NCBI GenBank assembly: GCA_963713605.1
Contig: CAVQMO010000015.1
Location: forward strand, 64,001 to 128,000
Direction: 5' to 3'
Length of the DNA stretch: 64,000 nt
From: an uncultured Nitrososphaerales archaeon
Lineage (GTDB): Archaea; Thermoproteota; Nitrososphaeria; Nitrososphaerales; Nitrososphaeraceae
Numbering within the stretch: position 1 is the first letter of the stretch; the number at the start of each line of letters is the position of its first letter. This document shows positions 6,821-28,695 of the stretch, piece after piece. The position numbers and the translations under genes are program-made. The notes below the pieces were generated by a model. That model was not told where the DNA came from. It saw only the letters and a program-made list of their open reading frames with translations, and did no database searches.

Positions 6821-7225
6821 TTACTCACTGGCTTCTCCTCCTCCACCACCTTCACTGCCTGTATCATCTGTACTGGTGGTATCTTCATCGCTGGGAGGAC
6901 TATCAGATGAAGTAGGTGCAGGACCCGTTCCAGTAGCTGTTCCCGTATTATATATTGGAGCAAAGCAATCTCTTATTTGTTGTTCGGAAACGGTTCCATC
7001 CACTTCAGGAGCAGAAAGACAGGATTGAAAATCCTGATAATCCTGACTTGCTGAACTAGTGTCTTCGCCTGCTGAACTAGTGTCTTCGCCTGCTGAACTA
7101 GTGTCTTCGCCTGTTTCATCAGACTGAGCTAGTGATGGAAGAACATAATTCATACTTGCTGGTACCATCAGTACTAATACGATTGTTGCTATTACACTTG
7201 TACCTAGAGTTTTTTTCTTATTCAT
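6821..7225 (-). CDS. Secreted acidic Ser/Thr-rich protein with a 21-bp internal repeat
   Basis: Signal peptide; GEDTSSA x3; one Cys pair. Confidence 0.75.
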   Translation of the reverse strand: MNKKKTLGTSVIATIVLVLMVPASMNYVLPSLAQSDETGEDTSSAGEDTSSAGEDTSSASQDYQDFQSCLSAPEVDGTVSEQQIRDCFAPIYNTGTATGTGPAPTSSDSPPSDEDTTSTDDTGSEGGGGGEASE

Positions 7226-13878: not shown

Positions 13879-15030
13879 TCATGGCATACTTATTACCGTA
13901 TTATTGTACACCCCGTTATCTTGTACAGCTATCGCGTCAGAGGGCCTTGCAATATTTATTATAGTGTTGTTATGTATATTATTCTCAAAGGAATCCTTAT
14001 CTATCTCTATCCCTCTGTCACTCTTTGAAACTGTATTATTATAGATCTCATTGTCATGCGATTCACTAATCACTATTCCAATGTCTTCATTACTAACAAA
14101 ATTATTTCTGGCAATAGAATCGTACATGTTTCTGCTAAACATTATACCCATCTTTGTATTATTGTACACTTTATTGCCCTCAATCACTACGCTATAACAA
14201 TTCAAAGAACAGATGATACCTATGGAACCATTATCGTGCACTGTGTTGTTTCTAATTACCATATCGTGTGTTCCTGAATGTGGGTCTATTCCATAATAGA
14301 TATTGTGATGGATGTGATTATTTTCAATTATCATATCGCCGACACCTATTGAATAGAGAGCGAAGTATAGATTATGTATATTATTTCCTTTTACAAGACT
14401 GCCATCACCCCCTTCATACCTCAGTCCGGTACGGCCTCCCCCATATCCTGATTCGTATCCAAGATACGCTATCTCTGAATTCGTGACGTCAGTTGTACCT
14501 GTAGCGTCCTCTTCTACTATGATATAGGGCCTAGGAGTACCAACGCTTAAATCTTGTCCATCTCTATCTGAATCCTGACTTGCAGTATAGTTATTTGAAC
14601 TTGGGTTCCACGAAGTTAACTTGATAGAATCGATCTTAAGACTACCGGATACAAGTACAGGATGTGCCGTATCTCCTCCTCCATCTGCAATTATCTTAAG
14701 CCATGAGGTATCAGTCGAGTTTAAATAAAGAGTAGCATTTTTAGAGATTACGATGCCAGCGTTCAAGACCCATATACTATTATTGTTATCTTCTTTAAGT
14801 AGAATTTTTGGATCCTTCACTTGATTGTTGATATCAGTCAAATTCGCAGATTTACAACTAACTGTTATCATCTTTTCTTTAGGATCGTATGTAATACAGT
14901 TGGAGGATGATGATGAATCTTCTTTCTCTAATGTACTGGCCGTTAAAGCCGATGAAGATTGTGCTGCAAGAATTATGATCATAGTCATAACGAATGCCAA
15001 TATTAATAGTAAGAAGACTATCTTCGTCAA
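13879..15030 (-). CDS. Secreted right-handed beta-helix protein (NosD/AlgG-like)
   Basis: PRPYI...NSEIAYLGY; YGIDPHSGTHDMVIRNNTVHDNG; repeated NN ladders. Confidence 0.85.
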   Translation of the reverse strand: MTKIVFLLLILAFVMTMIIILAAQSSSALTASTLEKEDSSSSSNCITYDPKEKMITVSCKSANLTDINNQVKDPKILLKEDNNNSIWVLNAGIVISKNATLYLNSTDTSWLKIIADGGGDTAHPVLVSGSLKIDSIKLTSWNPSSNNYTASQDSDRDGQDLSVGTPRPYIIVEEDATGTTDVTNSEIAYLGYESGYGGGRTGLRYEGGDGSLVKGNNIHNLYFALYSIGVGDMIIENNHIHHNIYYGIDPHSGTHDMVIRNNTVHDNGSIGIICSLNCYSVVIEGNKVYNNTKMGIMFSRNMYDSIARNNFVSNEDIGIVISESHDNEIYNNTVSKSDRGIEIDKDSFENNIHNNTIINIARPSDAIAVQDNGVYNNTVISMP

Positions 15031-15465: not shown

Positions 15466-15485
15466 GTACATTTCGACAAATGTAC
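15466..15485. promoter_or_regulatory. Palindromic operator candidate (Cu-cluster motif), site 1
   Basis: GTACATTTCGACAAATGTAC, one base longer than the consensus. Confidence 0.7.
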
Positions 15486-15541
15486 TATGGTTGCTTGTTT
15501 CTAAACTCATTTTCTAATCAATAATTTCAAATTTGCCCAAA

Positions 15542-15575
15542 CAATGTTCGAAAGATGTACCAATGATCTTAAATA
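15542..15575 (+). promoter_or_regulatory. Operator site 2 plus TATA box
   Basis: CAATGTTCGAAAGATGTAC-8 nt-TTAAATA; ATG at 15599. Confidence 0.7.
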
Positions 15576-15598
15576 CTTCATTCCGCCAGAATTGAATC

Positions 15599-16244
15599 AT
15601 GAAAAGCAAAATTCTTGCTGTTACTTCTATAATAAGTATTAGCATGGTATTGATTCTTGCATCTATTGGACTGCATCCTGTATCTGGACACGAAAGAAGA
15701 CTGTATACTATCGGCGATCAAAACTATCTCTTTGTAGTAGGTTCAATGAATGAGCCAGCGTTTGTGGACGACAAATCAGGGGTTGAAGTCTTCACATGGC
15801 TCGCCTGATCCGACCGATCCTATGAATTCCCAAGCAAATGGTACAAAGCCTATTGAAGGATTGACTCTCAAGGCAGATGTATCTGCAGGAGGAAAGAACA
15901 TGACCCTAGATCTGGAACCGGCATTCAGAGATCCAGGACATTACGAGGCAGTATTCTATCCAACAGTACCAACTACATACAACTATACAGTATATGGAGA
16001 TATTAATGGTACTGCATTCCGTGATACGTTCACATGCAGACCTGCTGGTGAATCAGAACCCGCCCAAGACAATTCAACGATAACTGTATCAGATGGTGTT
16101 ACTAGAATAGGTCAATCTGGAGGATTTGGTTGTTTCGAATCAAGAGCTGATGTGTCATTCCCAGAACAGTATGTATCAAATTACGAGCTACAACAGATGT
16201 TAAGCGAACTGCGGGGAACCTCTAACGCAACATCTCTGCCTTGA
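15599..16244 (+). CDS. Secreted protein with mature N-terminal His (putative Cu-binding), paralogue 1; frameshift near 15800
   Basis: VSG|HERRLYTIG...NEPAFVDDKSGV...PGHYEAVFYPT; similar to 19351-20019. Confidence 0.75.
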
Positions 16245-16341
16245 ATACTGATAGATTCGTATGAGGAAGTCAGAACTAAATTTCTTTCCCTTTCTATTTT
16301 CTTATCATTCTGTTATTTGATAAGAAGGTTATTGAACATCT

Positions 16342-17856
16342 ATGTGGCTAGAACGTAAACATCTAATTATTACCCTATCAATACTATCCATTTTCATTAT
16401 ATCGATCATGCCTTTTACAACATTTATTCTACAAACTTTCTCGCAGGGTGAAGATATGTCTATGGTGATGACTAATTCAAATTCACAAGAAACCATCACC
16501 TCATATAAAGATGCTTTGATAAAAGCTCCGTTATTAGTGTCACAGATTGCAATAGTTGGGATAGTTTTTAATCACATTGTATTTTCAAAAGTGCTTCATA
16601 ACCGCATTCTAATAGAGCCAAATAGACCCAGTCAAATAATGCAAAAAGATATTGGGGCAGCTAGAAGAGTGTTCTTGATATTGATTCTGTCAGTTATAGT
16701 TCTGTTAGCTTCCAGCAGTGGGTTGTTCATCCTGGAGGTATATAATTTATCAGCAGAATTGGGGCTATCTTTCTCCGATACCTTTTCAATTGTATTGGAT
16801 ACTTCTGTTGGCACGGTCTGGCTTCTGAGGATTATCACTTCAATCTTGATTTTCATTCTGTTAATAATATACTATGTGTTAGTAAAGAGAAATATGATGA
16901 GTAGGAGGGAGAAGATAGATAGAGATAGCCGGAACAAGGCAAGTAACATTATCTTGTTATCTATTTTGATCCTAGGTTCAATAAATATCCTTTCGAATAG
17001 TATAGTAAGCCATAATGCTGCTGCGTCATTCTTTCCTGAGGTAGCAATATCTACTGATTGGTTACATGTGATGGCGGTTTCCATTTGGCTTGGAGGATTA
17101 TTCTATATATCAGCAATACTTCTTTATGCAATAAGAACTTCGAGTAAAAGAGAATATGAAACCAGTACAAAAGAAGAGCAAGTAGTAAGAAATTGCTACT
17201 CATTGGCAGTAATGCTTCCATATTTCTCAATTATTGCAATCATATGTTTAGGGGTGATCGGTATAAGTGGATTGTACATGGCTTGGCTTCAACTTCCATC
17301 AATAGGATCCATATTTGATTCATTATATGGAAATATCCTAATACTGAAGCTATGCGTTATCGTGCCAATGATCTTGTTAGGAGGCTACCACCAGATTAAA
17401 TTACATTTTGTCATGGTACAAATTGCACAACGAGGAAACAGGACACAAAAGCAATTTGAGATTTTACCAACCGTTGATCAAAAAAATTCTAGAGAAGTAC
17501 AAGGTGACAAAGGGCATTTCGACCCTTTTAATCGATTTTCTAAAACAATAAAGATCGAATCAATCATTGGAATTTTAGTTCTTGTGGTATCAGCATTTCT
17601 AACAATTACATCTCCTCCATCAATGCCAATGTCGGGCTCTCAGATGCAAATGCAAGGACTAGTTGGCACCAGTCCTAATAATGATGTGGGTGGTGGCGAG
17701 GAGCAACATAATCCTCGGACTTTTGATGGATTTACCATTATGGCATTAATTTTAGCTCTCGTTGTGTTGATTATGAGTCTGTATTACTACCGAAGGAGCA
17801 GGCTGGAATCAAAGATAACGGCAGATCTATTGAAGAAAAACGGATCATTATCTTAG
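16342..17856 (+). CDS. copD: CopD-family copper transport membrane protein
   Basis: SHNAA...DWLHVMAVSIWLGGL; GISGLYMAW; YGNILILKL; Met-rich loop SMPMSGSQMQM. Confidence 0.88.
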   Translation: MWLERKHLIITLSILSIFIISIMPFTTFILQTFSQGEDMSMVMTNSNSQETITSYKDALIKAPLLVSQIAIVGIVFNHIVFSKVLHNRILIEPNRPSQIMQKDIGAARRVFLILILSVIVLLASSSGLFILEVYNLSAELGLSFSDTFSIVLDTSVGTVWLLRIITSILIFILLIIYYVLVKRNMMSRREKIDRDSRNKASNIILLSILILGSINILSNSIVSHNAAASFFPEVAISTDWLHVMAVSIWLGGLFYISAILLYAIRTSSKREYETSTKEEQVVRNCYSLAVMLPYFSIIAIICLGVIGISGLYMAWLQLPSIGSIFDSLYGNILILKLCVIVPMILLGGYHQIKLHFVMVQIAQRGNRTQKQFEILPTVDQKNSREVQGDKGHFDPFNRFSKTIKIESIIGILVLVVSAFLTITSPPSMPMSGSQMQMQGLVGTSPNNDVGGGEEQHNPRTFDGFTIMALILALVVLIMSLYYYRRSRLESKITADLLKKNGSLS

Positions 17857-17985
17857 GTCTAATTCAAGGCCTCTTAAAATCTGAATGCATAGTGATTTTT
17901 TATTTATCCCGTTAGTAGATACTAACTTCTGTCATTTTCTTCATCATATTATTAAATCCAATTAATAGCCTCATCCTGATTCTAT

Positions 17986-18019
17986 AATGTATCGAGAGAA
18001 GTACTATAATGTTTATGAA
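17986..18019 (+). promoter_or_regulatory. Degenerate operator site 3 plus TATA-like box
   Basis: AATGTATCGAGAGAAGTAC-8 nt-TTATGAA, upstream of copC. Confidence 0.5.
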
Positions 18020-18871
18020 TGTGGAAAGGGAATAAATTCATGCAGAAGCTGATATACTACATGGAAAAACTTCACTATTGTAATAGGAATAGATCAATTA
18101 TGCTATTGACACTTTTGATTTCATTTACCATTCTCACCCTTTTAATTGGCAATATGATTGTTCAATATGCCTATGCACATGCCAACCCTATTTCATTTTT
18201 GCCTAAGTCCAATTCGATTATCTCAGAAACTAAGAACCTACCTCAGAAAGTAGTAATCATTTACTCTGAAAGACCAGAACCAAAAGCTAGCTATATTCAC
18301 GTAACTGATTCCCATAATGAACGAATAGACAAAAACGATTACAAGATTAATGCAGATAATCCTAGAGAGGCTTCAGTTTTTATGGATACCTCAAAATTAA
18401 AACAAGGAGTGTACACAGTTACTTGGCTTGCGTTGTCAAAGGACGATGGTCATATTACAAAGGGTTCATATGTATTTAGTATTGCTAGTGCAGCTAATCC
18501 ACCAAAAACAGGTAATATATCGAGTAATGCTTTTGTCAACAGTACCTATCATAGACAACGTAAATACTACGTATAAAATATCTCCATTCTATTCCGGAAT
18601 AAATAATAATTTTACTGTTTCGTTATCTGACCTAGAAGGTAACGCCCATGCCAATATTAAGGCCGTTTTTCTAATATTCAATAACAAACAGGCAGGATTA
18701 GGACCAATAACTGCTAATTTAACTAAGGTGGGCGAAGGTGAGTATAGCGGATCGGGTGGATATCTTAGTCAACCAGGTAACTGGGAAGTGACGTTTGTGG
18801 CTCAAAGAACCAATAACTACGATCTTAATCATAGATTTACTATCAATGTAAAAAATCCTCCTACAATATGA
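18019..18871 (+). CDS. copC: CopC copper-binding protein with a C-terminal YtkA/FixH-like Ig domain (frameshift near 18545)
   Basis: AYA|HANP...YSERPE...GVYTVTWLALSKDDGHITKGSYVF; second half GEGEYSG...LSQPGNWEV. Confidence 0.88.
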
Positions 18872-19208
18872 CTCCGATGTAGTTCTAATAGGCCTACATG
18901 AGGCTAAACTGATTAGAGTAGTACTGGAGAAGATTTCCTTTGCGTTTGATCTACCTATAAGTGAGATGACCTCGCGCATGCCATTCTCATGAACAGAAGA
19001 CAAGGTCGTCATTTGTTGCCTTTATCAATAGCTAATACGCTTTTTATGGAGATATCATTGAAATCCGAGTGCAATCTAACTAAAAGTATTTTTCAATTAT
19101 GAATGCAAAGACATCATTCGTGATATCATTTTTGATTAAATTCACATCTATTGATATTAAAGTAAGTTATAACAGTTCGCAAGTATATTAATTTGACCAC
19201 AGGAATTA

Positions 19209-19227
19209 GTACATTCGTCGAATGCAC
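19209..19227. promoter_or_regulatory. Operator site 4
   Basis: GTACATTCGTCGAATGCAC (18/19 match to the perfect palindrome). Confidence 0.8.
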
Positions 19228-19350
19228 TATGAATAGTCCAAATTATTATGTAAATAAGAGCTAACTATACTATAATGTGACTCTCCAAGTTTAGGAACCC
19301 AGTAATTTGGTTCCGTAAAACATATCTCTATCCTAAACATCTTATGGGCA

Positions 19351-20019
19351 TTGAGAAGTAAATTTACTTCCATTTCCGTTCTGCTAGGAGTAATGACTAT
19401 TGCTGCACTGTTACTTTTTTCAATGTCCAACAAAGGTCTAGTATATGCTCATCAGAAACAACTTTACACAATTGGAAATAATAAGTATCTGTTTGCTGCA
19501 GGATTCCTGAATGAACCTGTCTATTTGGACGACAAATCTGGAGTTGACTTGTACGTGTATACACCTGATCCAAAGGATCCTATGAGTACAGACTCAAATT
19601 CAACAAAGCCTGTAGAGGAGTTACAAGATTCTCTCAAGGCAGAGATATCTGCCGGTCCAAAAACAAAAGTTCTTGACTTGGAACCTGATGAAGAGCAGCC
19701 AGGACATTATACAGCATCCTTTATTCCAGATGTCGAAACGACCTACAAATTCCGGATCTTTGGAAATTTAAGTGGAAGTCCGATTGGCATTGATTTTTCA
19801 TGTAGCCCAGGGGCAGTTTCTGAGGATACCATAATAAGCAATTCTACAGAAAAGATTTCTGACACAGTAACGAGAAATGGAGTAATAGGAGGTTATGAGT
19901 GCCCGGCACCCAGATCTGATGGAGCGTTTCCTGAGCCAATTCTATCAAACGCTGATATAGGCAAGAAGCTTTCTGAATTAGAAAACAGAGTTTCAGCATT
20001 GGAGAATGCAACTAAATAG
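19351..20019 (+). CDS. Secreted protein with mature N-terminal His, paralogue 2
   Basis: VYA|HQKQLYTIG...NEPVYLDDKSGVD...PGHYTASFIP. Confidence 0.8.
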   Translation: MRSKFTSISVLLGVMTIAALLLFSMSNKGLVYAHQKQLYTIGNNKYLFAAGFLNEPVYLDDKSGVDLYVYTPDPKDPMSTDSNSTKPVEELQDSLKAEISAGPKTKVLDLEPDEEQPGHYTASFIPDVETTYKFRIFGNLSGSPIGIDFSCSPGAVSEDTIISNSTEKISDTVTRNGVIGGYECPAPRSDGAFPEPILSNADIGKKLSELENRVSALENATK

Positions 20020-20129
20020 AATAAATGATCTCTACTTTTTTCAGTGCAGGTAGCAATTAAAATACAATTGAAGATCATCGTTTTAAATTTAGTGAATGTA
20101 TTGAAGAATAACATGGATTATTCATCAAG

Positions 20130-20754
20130 ATGTTGCGAAGCCGATCATTTTTTCTAATTCTAACATTTATTATCCTTAGTATTGGTATCGTTAATTCAAG
20201 TAGCAGTAATAATATCTTTAAGTTTGTATCAAATGGATCCATGCTAGCATTTGCACAAACAGTTTCATTAACTAATAATGAGAATAATAACCAAACACAA
20301 CAGCAACAATGGGTAGACAAGGTGAATAACATAAGAATTCTATTCAGCTCTCCTGTTAGCCCAATAATCGATTCAAGGACTCAGTTAAAATTTGATGTAC
20401 AAAATCTGACAACAAACGAAAATATTAAAGATCTAAGCGGCAAGAGTCACAATAGCAACTAATAGCAGTGGTCAGCTAAGAACATTCAAGTATACTAACA
20501 TATCATCTATTAATGGTAGTTTTGCCATAAGTTATATTTTTCCCGATTCAGGGATATATCAAATACTAACTAGAGTAGATTTAAAGGATTTCTCTTCTCT
20601 GGCATCATTCAATGTAGATGTTCCAGTTCAGCCATCTAATGCACTTAATCCGTCAAGCTCAGCTTTTTATCCTATGGTTATTACTATTGTAGTAGTTGCT
20701 GGCATTATTGCAGGTATAGGAATATGGGTAATGCGTAAAAGAAGGAGTAGGTAG
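20130..20754 (+). CDS. Membrane-anchored Ig-fold-like surface protein (frameshift near 20440)
   Basis: Signal peptide; continuation SYIFPDSGIYQI and C-terminal TM helix plus RKRRSR. Confidence 0.7.
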
Positions 20755-20915
20755 AAGGAGTATCACAATCTTAGGAATTAAAATACTATGTATCGGATCC
20801 TTTTATGGCTTTGTACAAATGGAAAAGAAAGAGTTTCTAAATTAGAAATTCTTGTTGTAACTAACTTATTATATGAGGTAAAGACTAAACTAAACTAGCC
20901 GAAACTAAAGTTATA

Positions 20916-22044
20916 TTACATTGAACCCATCGAACCAGCAGCCATAGACGAATTCGTTCCTACTTTTACCTCTGAAGGCTGTAATTCAAACTTCATCAGC
21001 CCATTAAATGCTTGTTGTTGTGAAGCCAGTTGCTGCCTGCGGCTGCGAGGATTGCTCTTGTTCCTTATTAGTATTAGTATTATTATTAACTCGTTTTGCC
21101 AAGTTAAGCAGAGTATCCTTTGTCAACATAATATGGATTACATCAGTTTTAGGATCAGTATTATCCAACACAATATCTTTTGTGACATCTAATCCATTTA
21201 CCGTGCCCGAATAAGAACTCGTATTAGTGAAGGCATTTGATTTAGGAACATTTATTTCTTCATGCACAAAAATATTGGCTTTCTTCAATCTGTCAATATT
21301 CCAATCAAAAGGCATACTGAATTGCATCTGCTTATTTTTTTCATTAAAGTTAAACCCATTCAATTTATCATAATATGAAATAATATTAATTGGAACATGT
21401 TTGCTATCTACATTTATCTGTCTATTTAATGTAGATCCTATGCTGAGCCAACTGTCATAGACATGTTGCTGATCAGCCGGAAGCACACAAGTATCACAAT
21501 CGATTGTTCCTATTCTAACTTTAAAATGGTACAATCCACCTTTTAGAAATATTGGTCCAGCCGCCTCCACAGGATTATCTGGTGTTCCAACATATGATCC
21601 TATAAGTGGCTCCTGTTCGCCATCAATTTTTACTATGCCTGTACTGTTATTTGGTGCTATTTCAATTCCCAATATGCCATTATGAGAATGGAACCAATTT
21701 GAAAACAGTTGTTTATTATCTTTATCTAGTATAGAAATATCATAATTCACATGATTAAATGATTTATTCGTCAGTGGATCAAATAATCTGAATTCAATTA
21801 TTGGTTTTTCATGTTTTGTTTGGAGGGTTTCCGTAGTCACAACTGAAGGGTTCATCTTTATCAGCAAATCTGATTGTCTATTACCTAACGATGCTGATGT
21901 CTGTTCCTGTGTCAAGCCATCTGCATAAGCAAGGTTAGTTATAGATGTTCTGTTAATAGCAAATAGCAGAATTAAAGCTATTAAAGAGAAGATACTGCAA
22001 ATTATGATACAAGATACAAACGAAGCAGCTCGTCTAGCAATCAA
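20916..22044 (-). CDS. Secreted thaumarchaeal surface protein with FHSH and CDTC motifs (frameshift near 21005)
   Basis: AYA|DGLTQE; WFHSHNG; GPIFLKGGLYHF; shifted Met-rich tail SMAAGSMGSM. Confidence 0.75.
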
Positions 22045-22152
22045 TACCCGTATTCCTTGTTAGTAAATATTGTGTGTTTAGCTATTTTAGGCTTATGGTA
22101 TGAGCAAGGTATTCTTGTTTCATTGATATATAAATAGTTACTATGCAAGAGA

Positions 22153-22171
22153 GTACATTCGTTAAATGTAC
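22153..22171. promoter_or_regulatory. Operator site 5
   Basis: GTACATTCGTTAAATGTAC; minus-strand TTTATATA lies 18 nt away towards the 22044 gene. Confidence 0.75.
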
Positions 22172-22291
22172 CACAAAATCTAATGGTAGGTAAAGCTCGT
22201 TGAGATAGCTTAAGAATTCGTAATAGGTCCAAATTCTTCGTTATTGTATATGGAATCTTTAATACATGCTATCTGTTATACAATCTATCTA

Positions 22292-22325
22292 GAACATTCG
22301 TCGGATGTACCACATTCTTTAATAC
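22292..22325 (+). promoter_or_regulatory. Operator site 6 plus TATA box with no downstream ORF
   Basis: GAACATTCGTCGGATGTAC-8 nt-TTAATAC. Confidence 0.65.
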
Positions 22326-22456
22326 ATGCCCAGGTAAACTTTCAATTATTGCATTTTGAAAAATAATTAGAATTTCTTTAGCAATCTGAACGTTCTATTG
22401 AACTAGTCAACAGAATCATGTGTGAGTGCCAAGTAGTGGTATATCCAAAATAACAC

Positions 22457-23023
22457 CTATAGCTTGTCAATAATACCCGTATAATTCTCTATAATGCGAT
22501 CTGTGAAGCTTTCTTTGTACTCTAGCAATACCCGATTGATCGTTATCTTATCTGCAACGCTATAAAGAAAATGGTCATTTCCATAGTTCGTGTTGAGTAT
22601 TCCAGCTTCTTTCAGCCTTTTGATATGCCAAGAAACGGTAGATGGAGCCTTGCCAATGTGATCTACAATTTCATTAAATGTACAAAATTCGTTCTTAAGC
22701 ATAAAAAACACAATGCTTCTAACAACATTACTTCTAAAGCAGCCTATAATATCAGAATCTCTTTTTGTTATATTGACAACAAAGTACCTTGTTACCCTAT
22801 TATTGCTCTGTCTTTCTACTCTAATCTCTCCGCTTTTCTCCAGTTTACCTAAATGATAAGATAAAACACCATTAGTCGTTCCAGATAACCTTATCAACTC
22901 CCTGTATCTTATTCCAGGATTTTCACATATGTAACTATAGATATCTTTTAGCAAATCACCTGAGCTGGGCACAAGATATTGTCCTGAAGTTGAATGGATA
23001 CTTTTATTATCTAAACTAGACAT
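22457..23023 (-). CDS. Double winged-helix (ArsR-like) transcription regulator
   Basis: NPGIRYRELIR...GVLSYHLGKLE and TFNEIVDHIGKAPSTVSWHIKRL. Confidence 0.88.
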   Translation of the reverse strand: MSSLDNKSIHSTSGQYLVPSSGDLLKDIYSYICENPGIRYRELIRLSGTTNGVLSYHLGKLEKSGEIRVERQSNNRVTRYFVVNITKRDSDIIGCFRSNVVRSIVFFMLKNEFCTFNEIVDHIGKAPSTVSWHIKRLKEAGILNTNYGNDHFLYSVADKITINRVLLEYKESFTDRIIENYTGIIDKL

Positions 23024-23457
23024 TATCTAGAGTTCACCTTTACAATGCCTATACCAAATAGGGCCAACATGGCAAATAGGATAATATGTGGTAATTCAAT
23101 GTTAACCCCTGGAATCAGTATATCCTGAATACCCCTGGCGGCATAGAAAAGAAATAGAATCTCCACTACGACAAGCGAAACAAACCCTAACGACATAAAC
23201 AACAATCTCGAACCGCCATTTCTAAAGTATGATGATAATGAAACAATACACAAGAAGATCGATAGTATTAGACTTGCAATGTGAAGAATGATATGATAAA
23301 TGTGTTGTGGGTGATTAATGTGTGGAATAATTAGTGGAATAGCCAGGATCGAAATTACAATTACTGAAACAAGAATGAAGAGTGTTGGTTTTTCAGAAAG
23401 AATGTTATTAATAATCATGCGTGATTTTCTGACAGAGTATACATGTTTCCTTTCCAT
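23023..23457 (-). CDS. His-rich 4-TM membrane protein, translationally coupled to the regulator
   Basis: IPHINHPQHIYHIILH; ELPH; TAATG stop/start overlap at 23023. Confidence 0.75.
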   Translation of the reverse strand: MERKHVYSVRKSRMIINNILSEKPTLFILVSVIVISILAIPLIIPHINHPQHIYHIILHIASLILSIFLCIVSLSSYFRNGGSRLLFMSLGFVSLVVVEILFLFYAARGIQDILIPGVNIELPHIILFAMLALFGIGIVKVNSR

Positions 23458-23579
23458 TTTCGCTCTTATAATTTTAAGTCTAGATCTATACTATCCGATC
23501 ATATCATAACCTAAAACAAATGACAACAAAAAAGTAAGTTGAAGCAGATAGTCTGACCTCGTCTTCACTATCTATAATT

Positions 23580-24124
23580 TTATGACCCTGTACTATTTGT
23601 TGCCTCCGCACCATCTCCATGTTCTCCTTCCTCTGCTCCAGGAGCAATTTTATTAATGCCTATGACTACTGTACTCCCAGGCGGAAATTCTAAACTATCT
23701 GTACCAGGATTTGCAATAGCTATATCTGTAATTACTTCTTCTTGTGGGGCAATATCAACATGGTAAAGACACATTTCTCCTGGAGCTGATAATTCCGGTA
23801 GATTTTCTAATTCGGCGAGCCGTGAAATTAGGCGCTTGCCCTAGTAGAACTTGAATGCTAGCAGTTGAGTTGTCTTCACATGGAACATTCACTGCAACAT
23901 GTCCATTCATTATCATATATGGTGTGGCATCATACAGATGAATAAACTTCCCAGCGGGAATGCTTGTTCCCTCAAGAAGCTCTGCTACTGAATCACGTAC
24001 TACGGTAGCGGGCCCCCTGGGCAAGCGTCGGTTGGATAATGTTATTCAGTCCATTTGTACTAAATCCCATTAGTCCAGCAATTATAAATCCAAGACAGAG
24101 AAACTTTGCATTTAATTCTCGCAT
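23580..24124 (-). CDS. Secreted thaumarchaeal protein with conserved His/Cys (two frameshifts)
   Basis: MRELNAKFLCLGF... / FIHLYDATPYMIMNGHVAVNVPC / MCLYHVDI. Confidence 0.7.
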
Positions 24125-24145
24125 AGAATTTTGATCTATTCAACT

Positions 24146-24180
24146 TTAATTAAGCATTGTGGTACATTCGTCGAATGAAT
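24146..24180 (-). promoter_or_regulatory. Operator site 7 plus TATA box
   Basis: Minus strand ATTCATTCGACGAATGTAC-8 nt-TTAATTAA; ATG at 24124. Confidence 0.8.
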
Positions 24181-26853: not shown

Positions 26854-27547
26854 ATGGCAGCGGCGACAACAACGGCAACAACTACAACTGAAACCACTAC
26901 AGCCTCTATTAAAGGTGAAATTCCAAACTGGAGAGTTACAGGTGATTGGTTTGACGTTTGTAAGTGCAACATACCATGTCCTTGTGAGTTTGCCCAAACT
27001 CCAACGTATGGCGACGGTATTTTAGCTTATAATATCAAAAAAGGCAATTATGGTGAAATTCACCTTGATGGCTTGAGTGTAATAGCCGTGGGTAGCTTCG
27101 AAGGTAATATCTGGGCAGGCGATGGCAAAACAAAAGTGGATCTTGCACTATTTTTTTGACGAGAAAGCAAATGAACAGCAAAGAGAAGCACTGAATATGA
27201 TTTTTAGTGGAAAGGCCGGTGGTTTTATGGCGGAGTTTGTAAAGCTTATTGGAGAAGTTCGGGGAATTGAATACGCTCCTATCAAGTTTGAGTTGGCAGA
27301 TGATTTATTCTATTGGAGTGCAGAGATACCCGGAAAAGTTTTTGCAAAAGCTGAGGCATTAACAGGCCCTACGACGCCGCCTGGTAAACGCGTTCAAACT
27401 ATTAACCCGCCTGGTAGTGAGGTAGGACCTGGAGGAGTTGCAACTTGGGGGATATCTCTTGCTGACGAAGTCGATACAATAGGCTTCAAATGGAAAAGAA
27501 AAGGTAGATCAAGTAAGCATATTCCATTTGATTGGAGCGGACCATGA
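26854..27547 (+). CDS. DUF1326 family protein (frameshift in the T-run near 27151)
   Basis: W...GDWFDVCKCNIPCPC; DEKANEQQREAL..IFSGKAGG. Confidence 0.85.
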
Positions 27548-27605
27548 AATCTACTAACTATATAAATGAACTTGAGTAATCAACTTACTACCCAATATTA
27601 GCATT

Positions 27606-28695
27606 ATGAAAACTTCTTCATCCATAAAAATTATTATTGTAGTTATATCAATCTCTATATTTACTTGGTTCGTATCGATATGGCAGTATGATACTATGAT
27701 GTCTTCTATAATGACATATTACTATAGTCCAGTAGCATTATCATTGTTTGCAATAATATGGACTGCGGGTATGGCTGCTATGATGTTCCCAGCTATAATA
27801 CCAATGATTCTTTTCTACAATAGACTCATTGATAGTAGTAAAGGCAACAAAGGTAATTTCCATTCTTATAATAGTAGTCAGGTGTTATATCATGGACAGA
27901 ATGATACCCACAGTGATACGGATAACAACAATAAAAATTATAATAGGATACCAAGTTCGGTAAATCAAGATCAAAATAAACATAGAAAGATCTACAATCT
28001 AAGCTATGTGTTCAGACCCAAGATTTATTATATGATGATTTTCATATTATCATATCTCGCAATCTGGGCAATAACTGGGATAGTACTGCTCATTGGATGG
28101 TCTTATGCCTTAGACATATTATTAGCACAATTGGGAATAAATGATATTCAACATCAGCAGGTACAACAGCAAAAGGAGCAACTATCGATAAATACTATAT
28201 ATGGAGTCCTGCTGATCATATCTGGGATCTATCAATTTAGCTCGCTAAAAGCCAAATGTCTTGGATATTGTGAATCTCCTCTTAGTTTCTTTATGAGGAG
28301 ATGGCGGAAGGGAGCAGTGGGAGCGGTGAAGATGGGAACATATCATGGCCTATATTGTCTCGGTTGTTGCTGGCCCTACTTTTTACTTATGGTAGCATTA
28401 GGATGGATGAATATTATCTGGATGGGTCTGTTTGCGGCCATCATCTTTGCTGAAAAGATTTGGGCTAAAGGCGGGCTCTGGATCGCTAGAATCACTGGTA
28501 TCTGCCTCATAACTATTGGAATTCTATCTTTGACTGGGATGATACTGCTTCCTTCTGATCCTATGAGTAGGTACTCGTGATAGTGGCATGATGTCAATGG
28601 ACAATTCAATGAATATGGATATGTCTTCCTCGCCGCCAGATAATACGTCATTTCATAACAAGACTGATGAAACTAGTTCAACTATGAATATGTAG
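27606..28695 (+). CDS. DUF2182 metal-binding integral membrane protein (ORF ends 28580; Met-rich tail in a shifted frame to 28695)
   Basis: GMAAMMFP; YQFSSLKAKCLGYCESP; GLYCLGCCW; MNIIWM...EK. Confidence 0.9.

Follow-up and report, generated by a model that had tools for sequence, protein, structure and literature searches.

How ammonia-oxidising archaea, which depend heavily on copper, regulate its uptake was an open question in 2020, and a cluster of copper genes in an uncultured Nitrososphaerales archaeon (assembly GCA_963713605.1) raises it in a concrete form. The window analyzed here is the whole stretch of 64,000 nucleotides at positions 64,001–128,000 of contig CAVQMO010000015.1, or G000:C15:64001-128000, where G000 denotes the own genome, a 4.09-Mb assembly of 15 contigs. 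A preliminary description of the window had placed seven copies of a 19-bp palindrome between copC, copD and genes of secreted proteins, and had proposed an undescribed copper operator that was read by an embedded double winged helix-turn-helix (wHTH) protein. Which part of the palindrome is the operator, and what reads it? Overall, the regulon proved to be known in part, and a regulator–sensor pair is newly proposed for it; a candidate regulator, operator and candidate sensor for copper uptake can now be named. The reading that we favor, to which we give a probability of roughly 0.55, is that the box is the likely site of a double-wHTH activator that would be switched on by a His-rich membrane partner when copper is scarce.

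The element and its place in promoters

The motif was trained on 172 regions upstream of cluster genes in family relatives, with the own genome excluded. Unseeded expectation maximisation (EM) on the sense strand of these regions returned TTCGa....TGTACcA, which was present in 120 of the 172 regions, covering 61 of 65 genomes and 15 genera; eight of the 120 training sites of the resulting matrix came from the genus of the own genome. A related motif was obtained by unseeded EM on 20 regions of three other families. The conserved element was TTCG-N5-TGTAC-YA, with the TTCG columns at 85–99% and the TGTAC columns at 84–99%, whereas the left GTACA and the inner CGAA of the palindrome (positions 1–5 and 11–14) were kept at merely 31–49%. 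The conserved unit is thus directional, and the column conservation in the relatives' sites ruled out the 19-bp palindrome as the essential unit that it had been taken for. The reverse strand also scored at the same centre in 24 of the 120 sites (column-shuffled null 0.6, maximum 5), including 21 of 39 sites before three secreted-protein genes and 3 of 81 before other genes. The palindromic form is two overlapped antiparallel copies of the directional site.

A TATA-like hexamer started at +8 in 72 of the 120 sites and at +7 in 38; no other offset occurred in more than 17 sites, and none on the mirror side in more than 6. In most of the 120 sites the core started 45–64 nucleotides before the ATG. 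Forward sites were found in 93 of the 172 regions, 77 of them centred 41–60 nucleotides before the ATG, and the 17 reverse-only sites were scattered. The eight spacer bases between the site and the TATA box hold the TFB recognition element (BRE), so the site abuts the BRE. The spacing in relatives supported the activator-type geometry that had been suggested for the window.

When the own genome was scanned with the relatives-trained matrix, 13 matches reached at least 19 bits, compared with 1 in each of two shuffles. Nine of the 13 fell in three copper clusters on contigs C15, C12 and C3, which ruled out a motif scattered over the genome regardless of gene function; the other four had no TATA box at +8. 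At 17 bits or more, six matches had a TATA box at +8, all of them within the three copper clusters, and the two shuffles had none. Counts of the exact pattern over whole genomes were noisy, with a control near 1 per genome. The element thus also marked two further copper clusters of this genome: C3 and C12 carried more copies of the secreted–membrane–wHTH cassette, in which the assembled wHTH gene was split or truncated, and a second copC/copD lay on C12. The motif search in this genome and its relatives, which the preliminary description had put forward as a check, recovered the element blind in the relatives and found it clustered with copper genes in this genome.

The copper regulon reading was also supported by the products of the genes. 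The CopC ligands H54/E84/D143/H145 were kept in 36–41 of 42 sequences. In the 222-aa secreted protein, His34 directly followed the apparent signal peptide in 25 of 26 homologues and Glu55 was present in 24 of 26; His held the same position in 47 of 48 members of a 326-aa secreted family, and likewise in CopC. In the family labelled f2, the box preceded a cupredoxin-like gene (cupredoxin match below cut-off).

The operator itself had been published before. In Nitrososphaera viennensis, Reyes et al. (2020; PMC7785015) counted 12 occurrences of TTCSGSMTTTGWACYANT in a selection of 15 genes induced by copper limitation; this is the same motif, so "undescribed" does not apply to it. According to the available text of that study, copper limitation induced NVIE_014290 (log2 +2.72), NVIE_014280 (+2.47) and copC/D (+2.68 and +2.20); the "ArsR" gene NVIE_014280 was co-transcribed with NVIE_014290; and Cop gene regulation was left open, with NVIE_030040/030060 proposed as a CopRS pair (PMC7785015). 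By eye, the promoters of the membrane, 326-aa, 222-aa and copC/D genes at locus L039 matched those printed for NVIE_014290, NVIE_014250, NVIE_1457 and NVIE_014310 in 34, 34, 32 and 31 of 36 bases, respectively, and the N. viennensis gene order agreed with that of L039 and L108. These matches suggest that NVIE_014290/014280 are the orthologues of the membrane/wHTH pair described below. Comparison with the N. viennensis transcriptome, another check that had been envisaged, thus showed orthologues of the cluster genes to be induced when copper was limiting. Of the eight sense-strand sites of N. viennensis, judged by eye, four had a clear TATA box at +8, one a weak one and three none. The element is very probably a real copper-limitation element.

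The double-wHTH protein and its membrane partner

The preliminary description did not include the His-rich membrane gene that overlaps the start of the wHTH gene. Of the family genomes, 128 of 151 held this membrane gene, as did 126 of 201 class genomes, and the wHTH gene lay directly behind it in 98 of 107 distinct cases. Of the membrane-gene loci of at least 10 kb, 40 of 79 contained copC or copD. Within the family, 41 of 50 promoters of the membrane gene had the box. In families f2, f3 and f5 it was present in all 20 (shuffle rate 0.35%), 14 of which had the TATA box at +8.

The predicted model of the wHTH protein comprised two winged-helix domains (predicted local distance difference test, pLDDT, 81), and fold searches gave matches over single domains only, or poor ones. 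Recognition residues were near-invariant in both domains, but a conserved metal motif was absent (C114 in 58/94). The protein scored 44.1 bits against PF24266 (HVO_0163-type; gathering cut-off 31), or 30.6 bits, just under it, in the six-frame search. Its score against the NCBIfam ArsR/SmtB model NF033788 was 41.6 bits and the cut-off 55; an ArsR/SmtB metalloregulator was rejected on this score, the two wHTH domains and the absence of an invariant Cys/His set. CsoR/RcnR was likewise rejected, as there was no such Pfam match and the fold was winged-helix instead of all-helical. Neither TRASH nor Lrp was found in the protein among 10 Pfam families, nor was a conserved Cys cluster.

In the model of the membrane protein (pLDDT 88), an N-terminal helix was followed by four long ones. 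Among 109 sequences, H59 and E99 were invariant, and H46, H49, H55, E121 and H124 were present in 100–107. Basic residues were located at the termini and in the middle loop, which by the positive-inside rule would turn the His/Glu ligands to the outer side. The window protein matched no Pfam family, and 9 of 51 distant homologues matched DUF7471/DUF7521 below cut-off. Fold searches with this model yielded nothing more specific than helical bundles (best Z 9.0) and no Foldseek match at E 0.001. A literature search on HVO_0163, the DUF7471/DUF7521 names and related phrases gave no paper on them among the matches listed.

A paralogous clade served as a first test of specificity. This second double-wHTH clade (23–28% identity) was found in 88 of 151 genomes; its recognition-helix residues differed, and its own membrane partner was His-poor and acidic. 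Unseeded EM on the 29 best paralog loci outside G000 returned TCA.TTAG.tacTTGTACCAcA. TTAG or TTAC occurred in 20 of 28 usable promoters of the paralog clade itself and TTCG in none, and the 192 cluster promoters of the main clade had TTCG in 75, TTCT in 12 and TTAG in 1. The same rule of clade and box held in two lineages outside the order: in G161 (8% contamination) the membrane/wHTH pair was accompanied by five TTCG/TTTG sites within 9 kb, and in G179 a single TTAG site accompanied a wHTH gene that had a membrane gene downstream. This covariation is the strongest evidence for the wHTH protein as the predicted binder. Together with operon linkage and the box before the operon, it supported the earlier choice of the embedded double-wHTH protein. 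As judged from these sequences, the protein probably binds the box and, slightly less surely, would act as an activator; that its partner is the copper sensor is predicted with an even chance or a little better. The changed box of the paralog offers a ready specificity swap for an uncharacterised archaeal regulator family.

In the own genome, two loci (L238 and L239; G000:C5:333219-335755 and C10:915422-917943) encoded the paralogous double-wHTH protein with its acidic membrane gene, and TTAG-N5-TGTAC boxes stood before this pair and, in two cases, also upstream of a gene for a secreted protein. A near-identical duplicated block (G000:C13:13291-18115 and C2:92148-96858) held a gene that by eye is Lrp/TRASH-like, a paralog of the gene for the 180-aa secreted protein, a divergent wHTH gene and a TTAG site. 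In the distant lineages (G161:C1:22001-31000, L280; G179:C9:1001-9000, L281), pair and box lay beside ATP-binding cassette transporter and iron-sulfur membrane genes; the neighbors in G179 also included, by eye, nickel/cobalt- and FeoB-like transport genes.

Losses of the pair were a second test. In 47 of 139 f2 genomes there was no membrane-protein match and no intact orthologous wHTH gene with a close query. In genus g20, the orthologous divergent promoter held a site of at least 17 bits in 12 of 15 genomes with the pair and in 5 of 22 without it; the sites without the pair had decayed by different changes, and their flanks were kept. The pair changed 12 times on the quick tree of 50 genomes used for this test. 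The direction of the loss test agreed with the wHTH protein as binder; significance was not reached. Broken wHTH remnants were present in three f2 genomes that lost the pair (G298:C40, L282; G322:C8, L283; G310:C1), and the site of G298 was still intact despite the remnant, which suggests a recent loss. The core copC/D of f2 was uninformative as a loss test, since g20 had no sense-strand site there either way (0 of 14 with and 0 of 22 without the pair). At loci L148–L207, the copC/D TATA box (TTTAAA) was ~8 nucleotides from the mirror edge of the site between core copC/D and a 217-aa gene (P0001). This site points away from copC/D, and binding might repress copC/D while activating the neighbor. 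The core copC/D gene of f2, the sister family, had no box on its own strand, and this may account for the opposite responses of copC/D to copper limitation, up (+2.2) in N. viennensis and down (−1.7) in N. maritimus.

Mechanism and alternative readings

In the mechanism that we propose, the two HTH domains of one chain would read the two unlike boxes, and palindromic sites would hold two overlapped sites. The bound wHTH protein would abut the BRE and recruit TFB. The membrane protein would bind copper at its outer face and keep the regulator inactive until copper falls, and the operon would amplify itself via its own box. The fit to a TFB-recruiting activator rests on the fixed spacing, the fixed direction, the autoregulation and the induction of the regulator. 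A wider generalisation, held only tentatively and at somewhat less than even odds, is a kinase-free archaeal transmembrane module in which a small four-helix protein would sense external copper through a His/Glu site and directly control a tandem-wHTH activator at a directional two-box operator, with paralogs swapping sensor residues and distal box for other regulons.

Several observations weigh against the copper-switched activator. Over all rows, the site was kept in 16 of 29 cases with the pair and 11 of 31 without it (5 loci lacking the gene were dropped), five of six pair-less genomes of genus g22 retained the site, and the loss test was non-significant (10 independent pairs, 4.9 for and 0.8 contrary, median p 0.22). 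In genus g19 the pair was present and the site was a low-scoring variant. Of the 47 genomes that lack the pair, 45 still had the gene behind the divergent-promoter site, a finding easier to reconcile with a repressor. When TTAG loci were picked by pattern alone, 27 of 30 had no wHTH gene within 1.5 kb; in the other three it was of the paralog clade. The G161 system flanks genes without an evident copper role. A TATA box at +8 was missing from three sites of the window and from the copC/D_b promoter of N. viennensis. The N. viennensis cluster was, according to the part of the paper available, also induced in biofilms (PMC12448741).

The alternative that survives best, though we consider it unlikely, keeps the wHTH protein as activator at the box and makes the membrane protein a co-regulated metal channel or carrier, with the regulator itself reading a cytoplasmic signal. 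Transporters too are lined by His/Glu clusters, and 9 of the 107 membrane genes had no wHTH gene directly behind them; in the available part of one paper, NVIE_014290 is called a putative cation channel (PMC12448741). However, the wHTH protein had no conserved metal motif and was under the ArsR/SmtB cut-off. The His-poor, acidic partner of the paralogous clade also speaks against a mere channel, as it shows the partner varying in step with the regulator.

A repressor that covers the BRE under plentiful copper and is released under scarcity seemed to us improbable. In its favor, a protein on the box, which directly adjoins the BRE, could sterically exclude TFB, and f2 lost the pair repeatedly yet kept the downstream gene and the promoter flanks. 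Sharp spacing and fixed direction are required for contact with TFB but not for a repressor, and the tested archaeal factors at the same position, TFB-RF1 and CopR, activate.

It is very improbable that another factor reads the box (a CopRS-like pair, an Lrp/TRASH CopT or a TFB paralog with an extended BRE) and that the wHTH operon is merely its target. This would suit the proposal of NVIE_030040/030060 by Reyes et al. (PMC7785015) and the persistence of the site in several genomes lacking the pair, but the box varied with the wHTH clade, also in the distant G179, and the published CopR motif differs. In f2, pattern counts exceeded the control only where the pair was present (92 genomes, 146 vs. 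97, an excess that is partly the operon's own site; 36 vs. 44 in the 47 genomes without it). Equally remote is the system as described with another metal or the envelope state as its signal and copper limitation acting indirectly: the limitation was imposed by a chelator and half of the transcriptome changed, the cluster also responds in biofilms and the distant systems adjoin other transport genes, but the target genes encode CopD, a CopC whose Cu(II) ligand set is intact, a cupredoxin-like protein and secreted proteins in which His follows the signal peptide.

Features of the window and comparison with known systems

Relative to contigs of public runs, the assembly had single-base insertions at 15466, 15471, 15802, 18545, 20435, 21036, 23817 and 24010 (each seen in 1–4 of 4 runs, at low depth). 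These eight insertions, which split five genes, are likely assembly errors, and the split genes were open throughout once the insertions were allowed for. The features are collected in Table 1.

Table 1. Sites of the element and genes of the copper cluster, by window position (bits from the relatives-trained matrix).
Feature	Coordinates	Strand	Remarks
Site 1	15466..15485	.	Palindromic; assembly has one extra base; TATA at +8 absent; 20.4 bits
Site 2	15542..15575	+	Directional; core 15547-15560, 8-nt spacer, TATA 15569-15575; 20.9 bits
Secreted protein	15599..16244	+	214 aa allowing a 1-nt insertion near 15802; paralog of the 222-aa protein; His after apparent signal peptide
CopD	16342..17856	+	Pfam PF05425, E 9e-17
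Site 3	17986..18019	+	Degenerate, 8 nt before TTATGAA; 5.7 bits
CopC	18019..18871	+	One gene, split by insertion at 18545; likely start 18040; extra C-terminal domain
Site 4	19209..19227	.	Palindromic; 17.9 bits on one strand, 22.2 on the other; TATA at +8 absent on both sides
Secreted protein	19351..20019	+	222 aa; no Pfam family
Exported/membrane-anchored protein, uncharacterised	20130..20754	+	207 aa, split by insertion at 20435; end approximate
Secreted protein	20916..22044	-	375 aa allowing insertion at 21036 (346 as assembled); end approximate
Site 5	22153..22171	.	Upstream of 375-aa gene; TTTATATA 18 nt off, minus strand; 19.5 bits (+), 4.5 bits (-)
Site 6	22292..22325	+	TATA at +8, points to 3' end of wHTH gene; 23.2 bits
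Double winged-helix protein	22457..23023	-	188 aa, HVO_0163-type N-terminal domain; candidate binder
Four-helix membrane protein	23023..23457	-	144 aa; stop overlaps wHTH start; candidate copper sensor
Secreted protein	23580..24124	-	180 aa with insertions at 23817 and 24010 allowed for; conserved His/Cys; first gene of regulator operon in genus
Site 7	24146..24180 (motif 24162-24180)	-	8-nt spacer, TATA 24146-24153; 23.7 bits

All seven copies of the preliminary description were intergenic and held at least part of the element, but only four fitted the palindrome consensus: GTACATTCGNCGAATGTAC was matched within 3 mismatches at 19209, 22153, 22292 and 24162 (4 in the window against 0.01 expected). 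Sites 15542 and 17986 had 7 and 10 mismatches, respectively. The extra base of site 15466, at 15471, was missing from contigs of two runs of one study, and without it the site had 1 mismatch. With the relatives-only matrix, six sites, including 15542, scored 19.5–23.7 bits in their better orientation, leaving 17986 as the degenerate one. Nothing else in the window exceeded 13.2 bits, in line with the earlier statement that there were no further copies; two matches at 13.2 bits came from a 21-nt tandem repeat (7059–7100) and were taken as chance.

The motif end 8 nucleotides before a TATA-like box was confirmed at 15542, 17986, 22292 and 24162. The 18-nucleotide spacing described for a fifth site is in the sequence (22153, minus strand), but +18 occurred in only 2 of the relatives' 120 sites and was not enriched, so a second spacing class was unsupported. 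Site 2 belongs to the promoter of the first gene for a secreted protein, which likely serves copD as well. Site 7 is likely the promoter of the regulator operon, and its core starts 51 nucleotides before the ATG, the modal distance among relatives. Site 3 is probably a decayed copy, because the paralogous copC promoter on contig C12 had a 15.0-bit site at its position and the same TATA-like sequence. Site 6 is possibly an orphaned promoter; it could have been left by an inversion, or could give antisense RNA.

The extra C-terminal domain of CopC was YtkA-like, below cut-off, in the C12 paralog, and the 375-aa secreted gene was a conserved neighbor of the cluster. The cluster was flanked by a NosD-like beta-helix gene (13879–15030) and by DUF1326 and PpoB2 "copper chaperone" genes (26854–28580), and there was no site of at least 12 bits directly upstream of these flanking genes.

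The regulon of N. viennensis resembled the present one in core spacing, TTC-N6-TGWAC-YA, and in its genes; here too, most sites fell in the range of 35–70 nucleotides before the start codon, and the pattern preceded the orthologues of the copC/D cluster. In the available text of Reyes et al., by contrast, TATA geometry, the palindromic form, cross-species conservation of the motif and a regulator do not appear; a word search of it met "palindrom" only for a down-regulated motif and no discussion of TATA (PMC7785015). A literature search, with most subscription journals outside its scope, found no paper naming the regulator of this motif. New here are the fixed TATA geometry, the finding that the element is conserved across four families, and the likely binder.

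In its PF24266 match over cut-off, the regulator is like the HVO_0163-type double-wHTH proteins, and distant homologues of its membrane partner matched DUF7471/DUF7521 weakly. CopR/CopT, which combine an Lrp-type HTH with TRASH, are also copper regulators that activate directly upstream of the BRE; in the accessible part of the study, they sense copper excess via their own TRASH domain, drive export and have the motif TTNNCAWWWTGNNAA (PMC7830388), whereas the regulon described here would be shortage-induced, as its N. viennensis orthologues are. By eye, TTNNCAWWWTGNNAA was unlike the element columns. The layout resembled that of TFB-RF1 (PF1088)/PF1089 of Pyrococcus furiosus, likened here by arrangement and not by sequence homology. 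In the part of that work consulted, the TFB-RF1 operator is a palindromic TCTG-N5-CAGA with no copper link, whereas the present one is a directional TTCG-N5-TGTAC; TFB-RF1 is an operon regulator encoded behind a four-transmembrane gene of unknown function, and it binds its own promoter just upstream of the BRE/TATA at a conserved distance (PMC5937170). The sites of the regulon described here likewise keep a fixed distance to the TATA box (+8 in 72 of 120), and one lies in the promoter of the operon that contains the four-helix gene.

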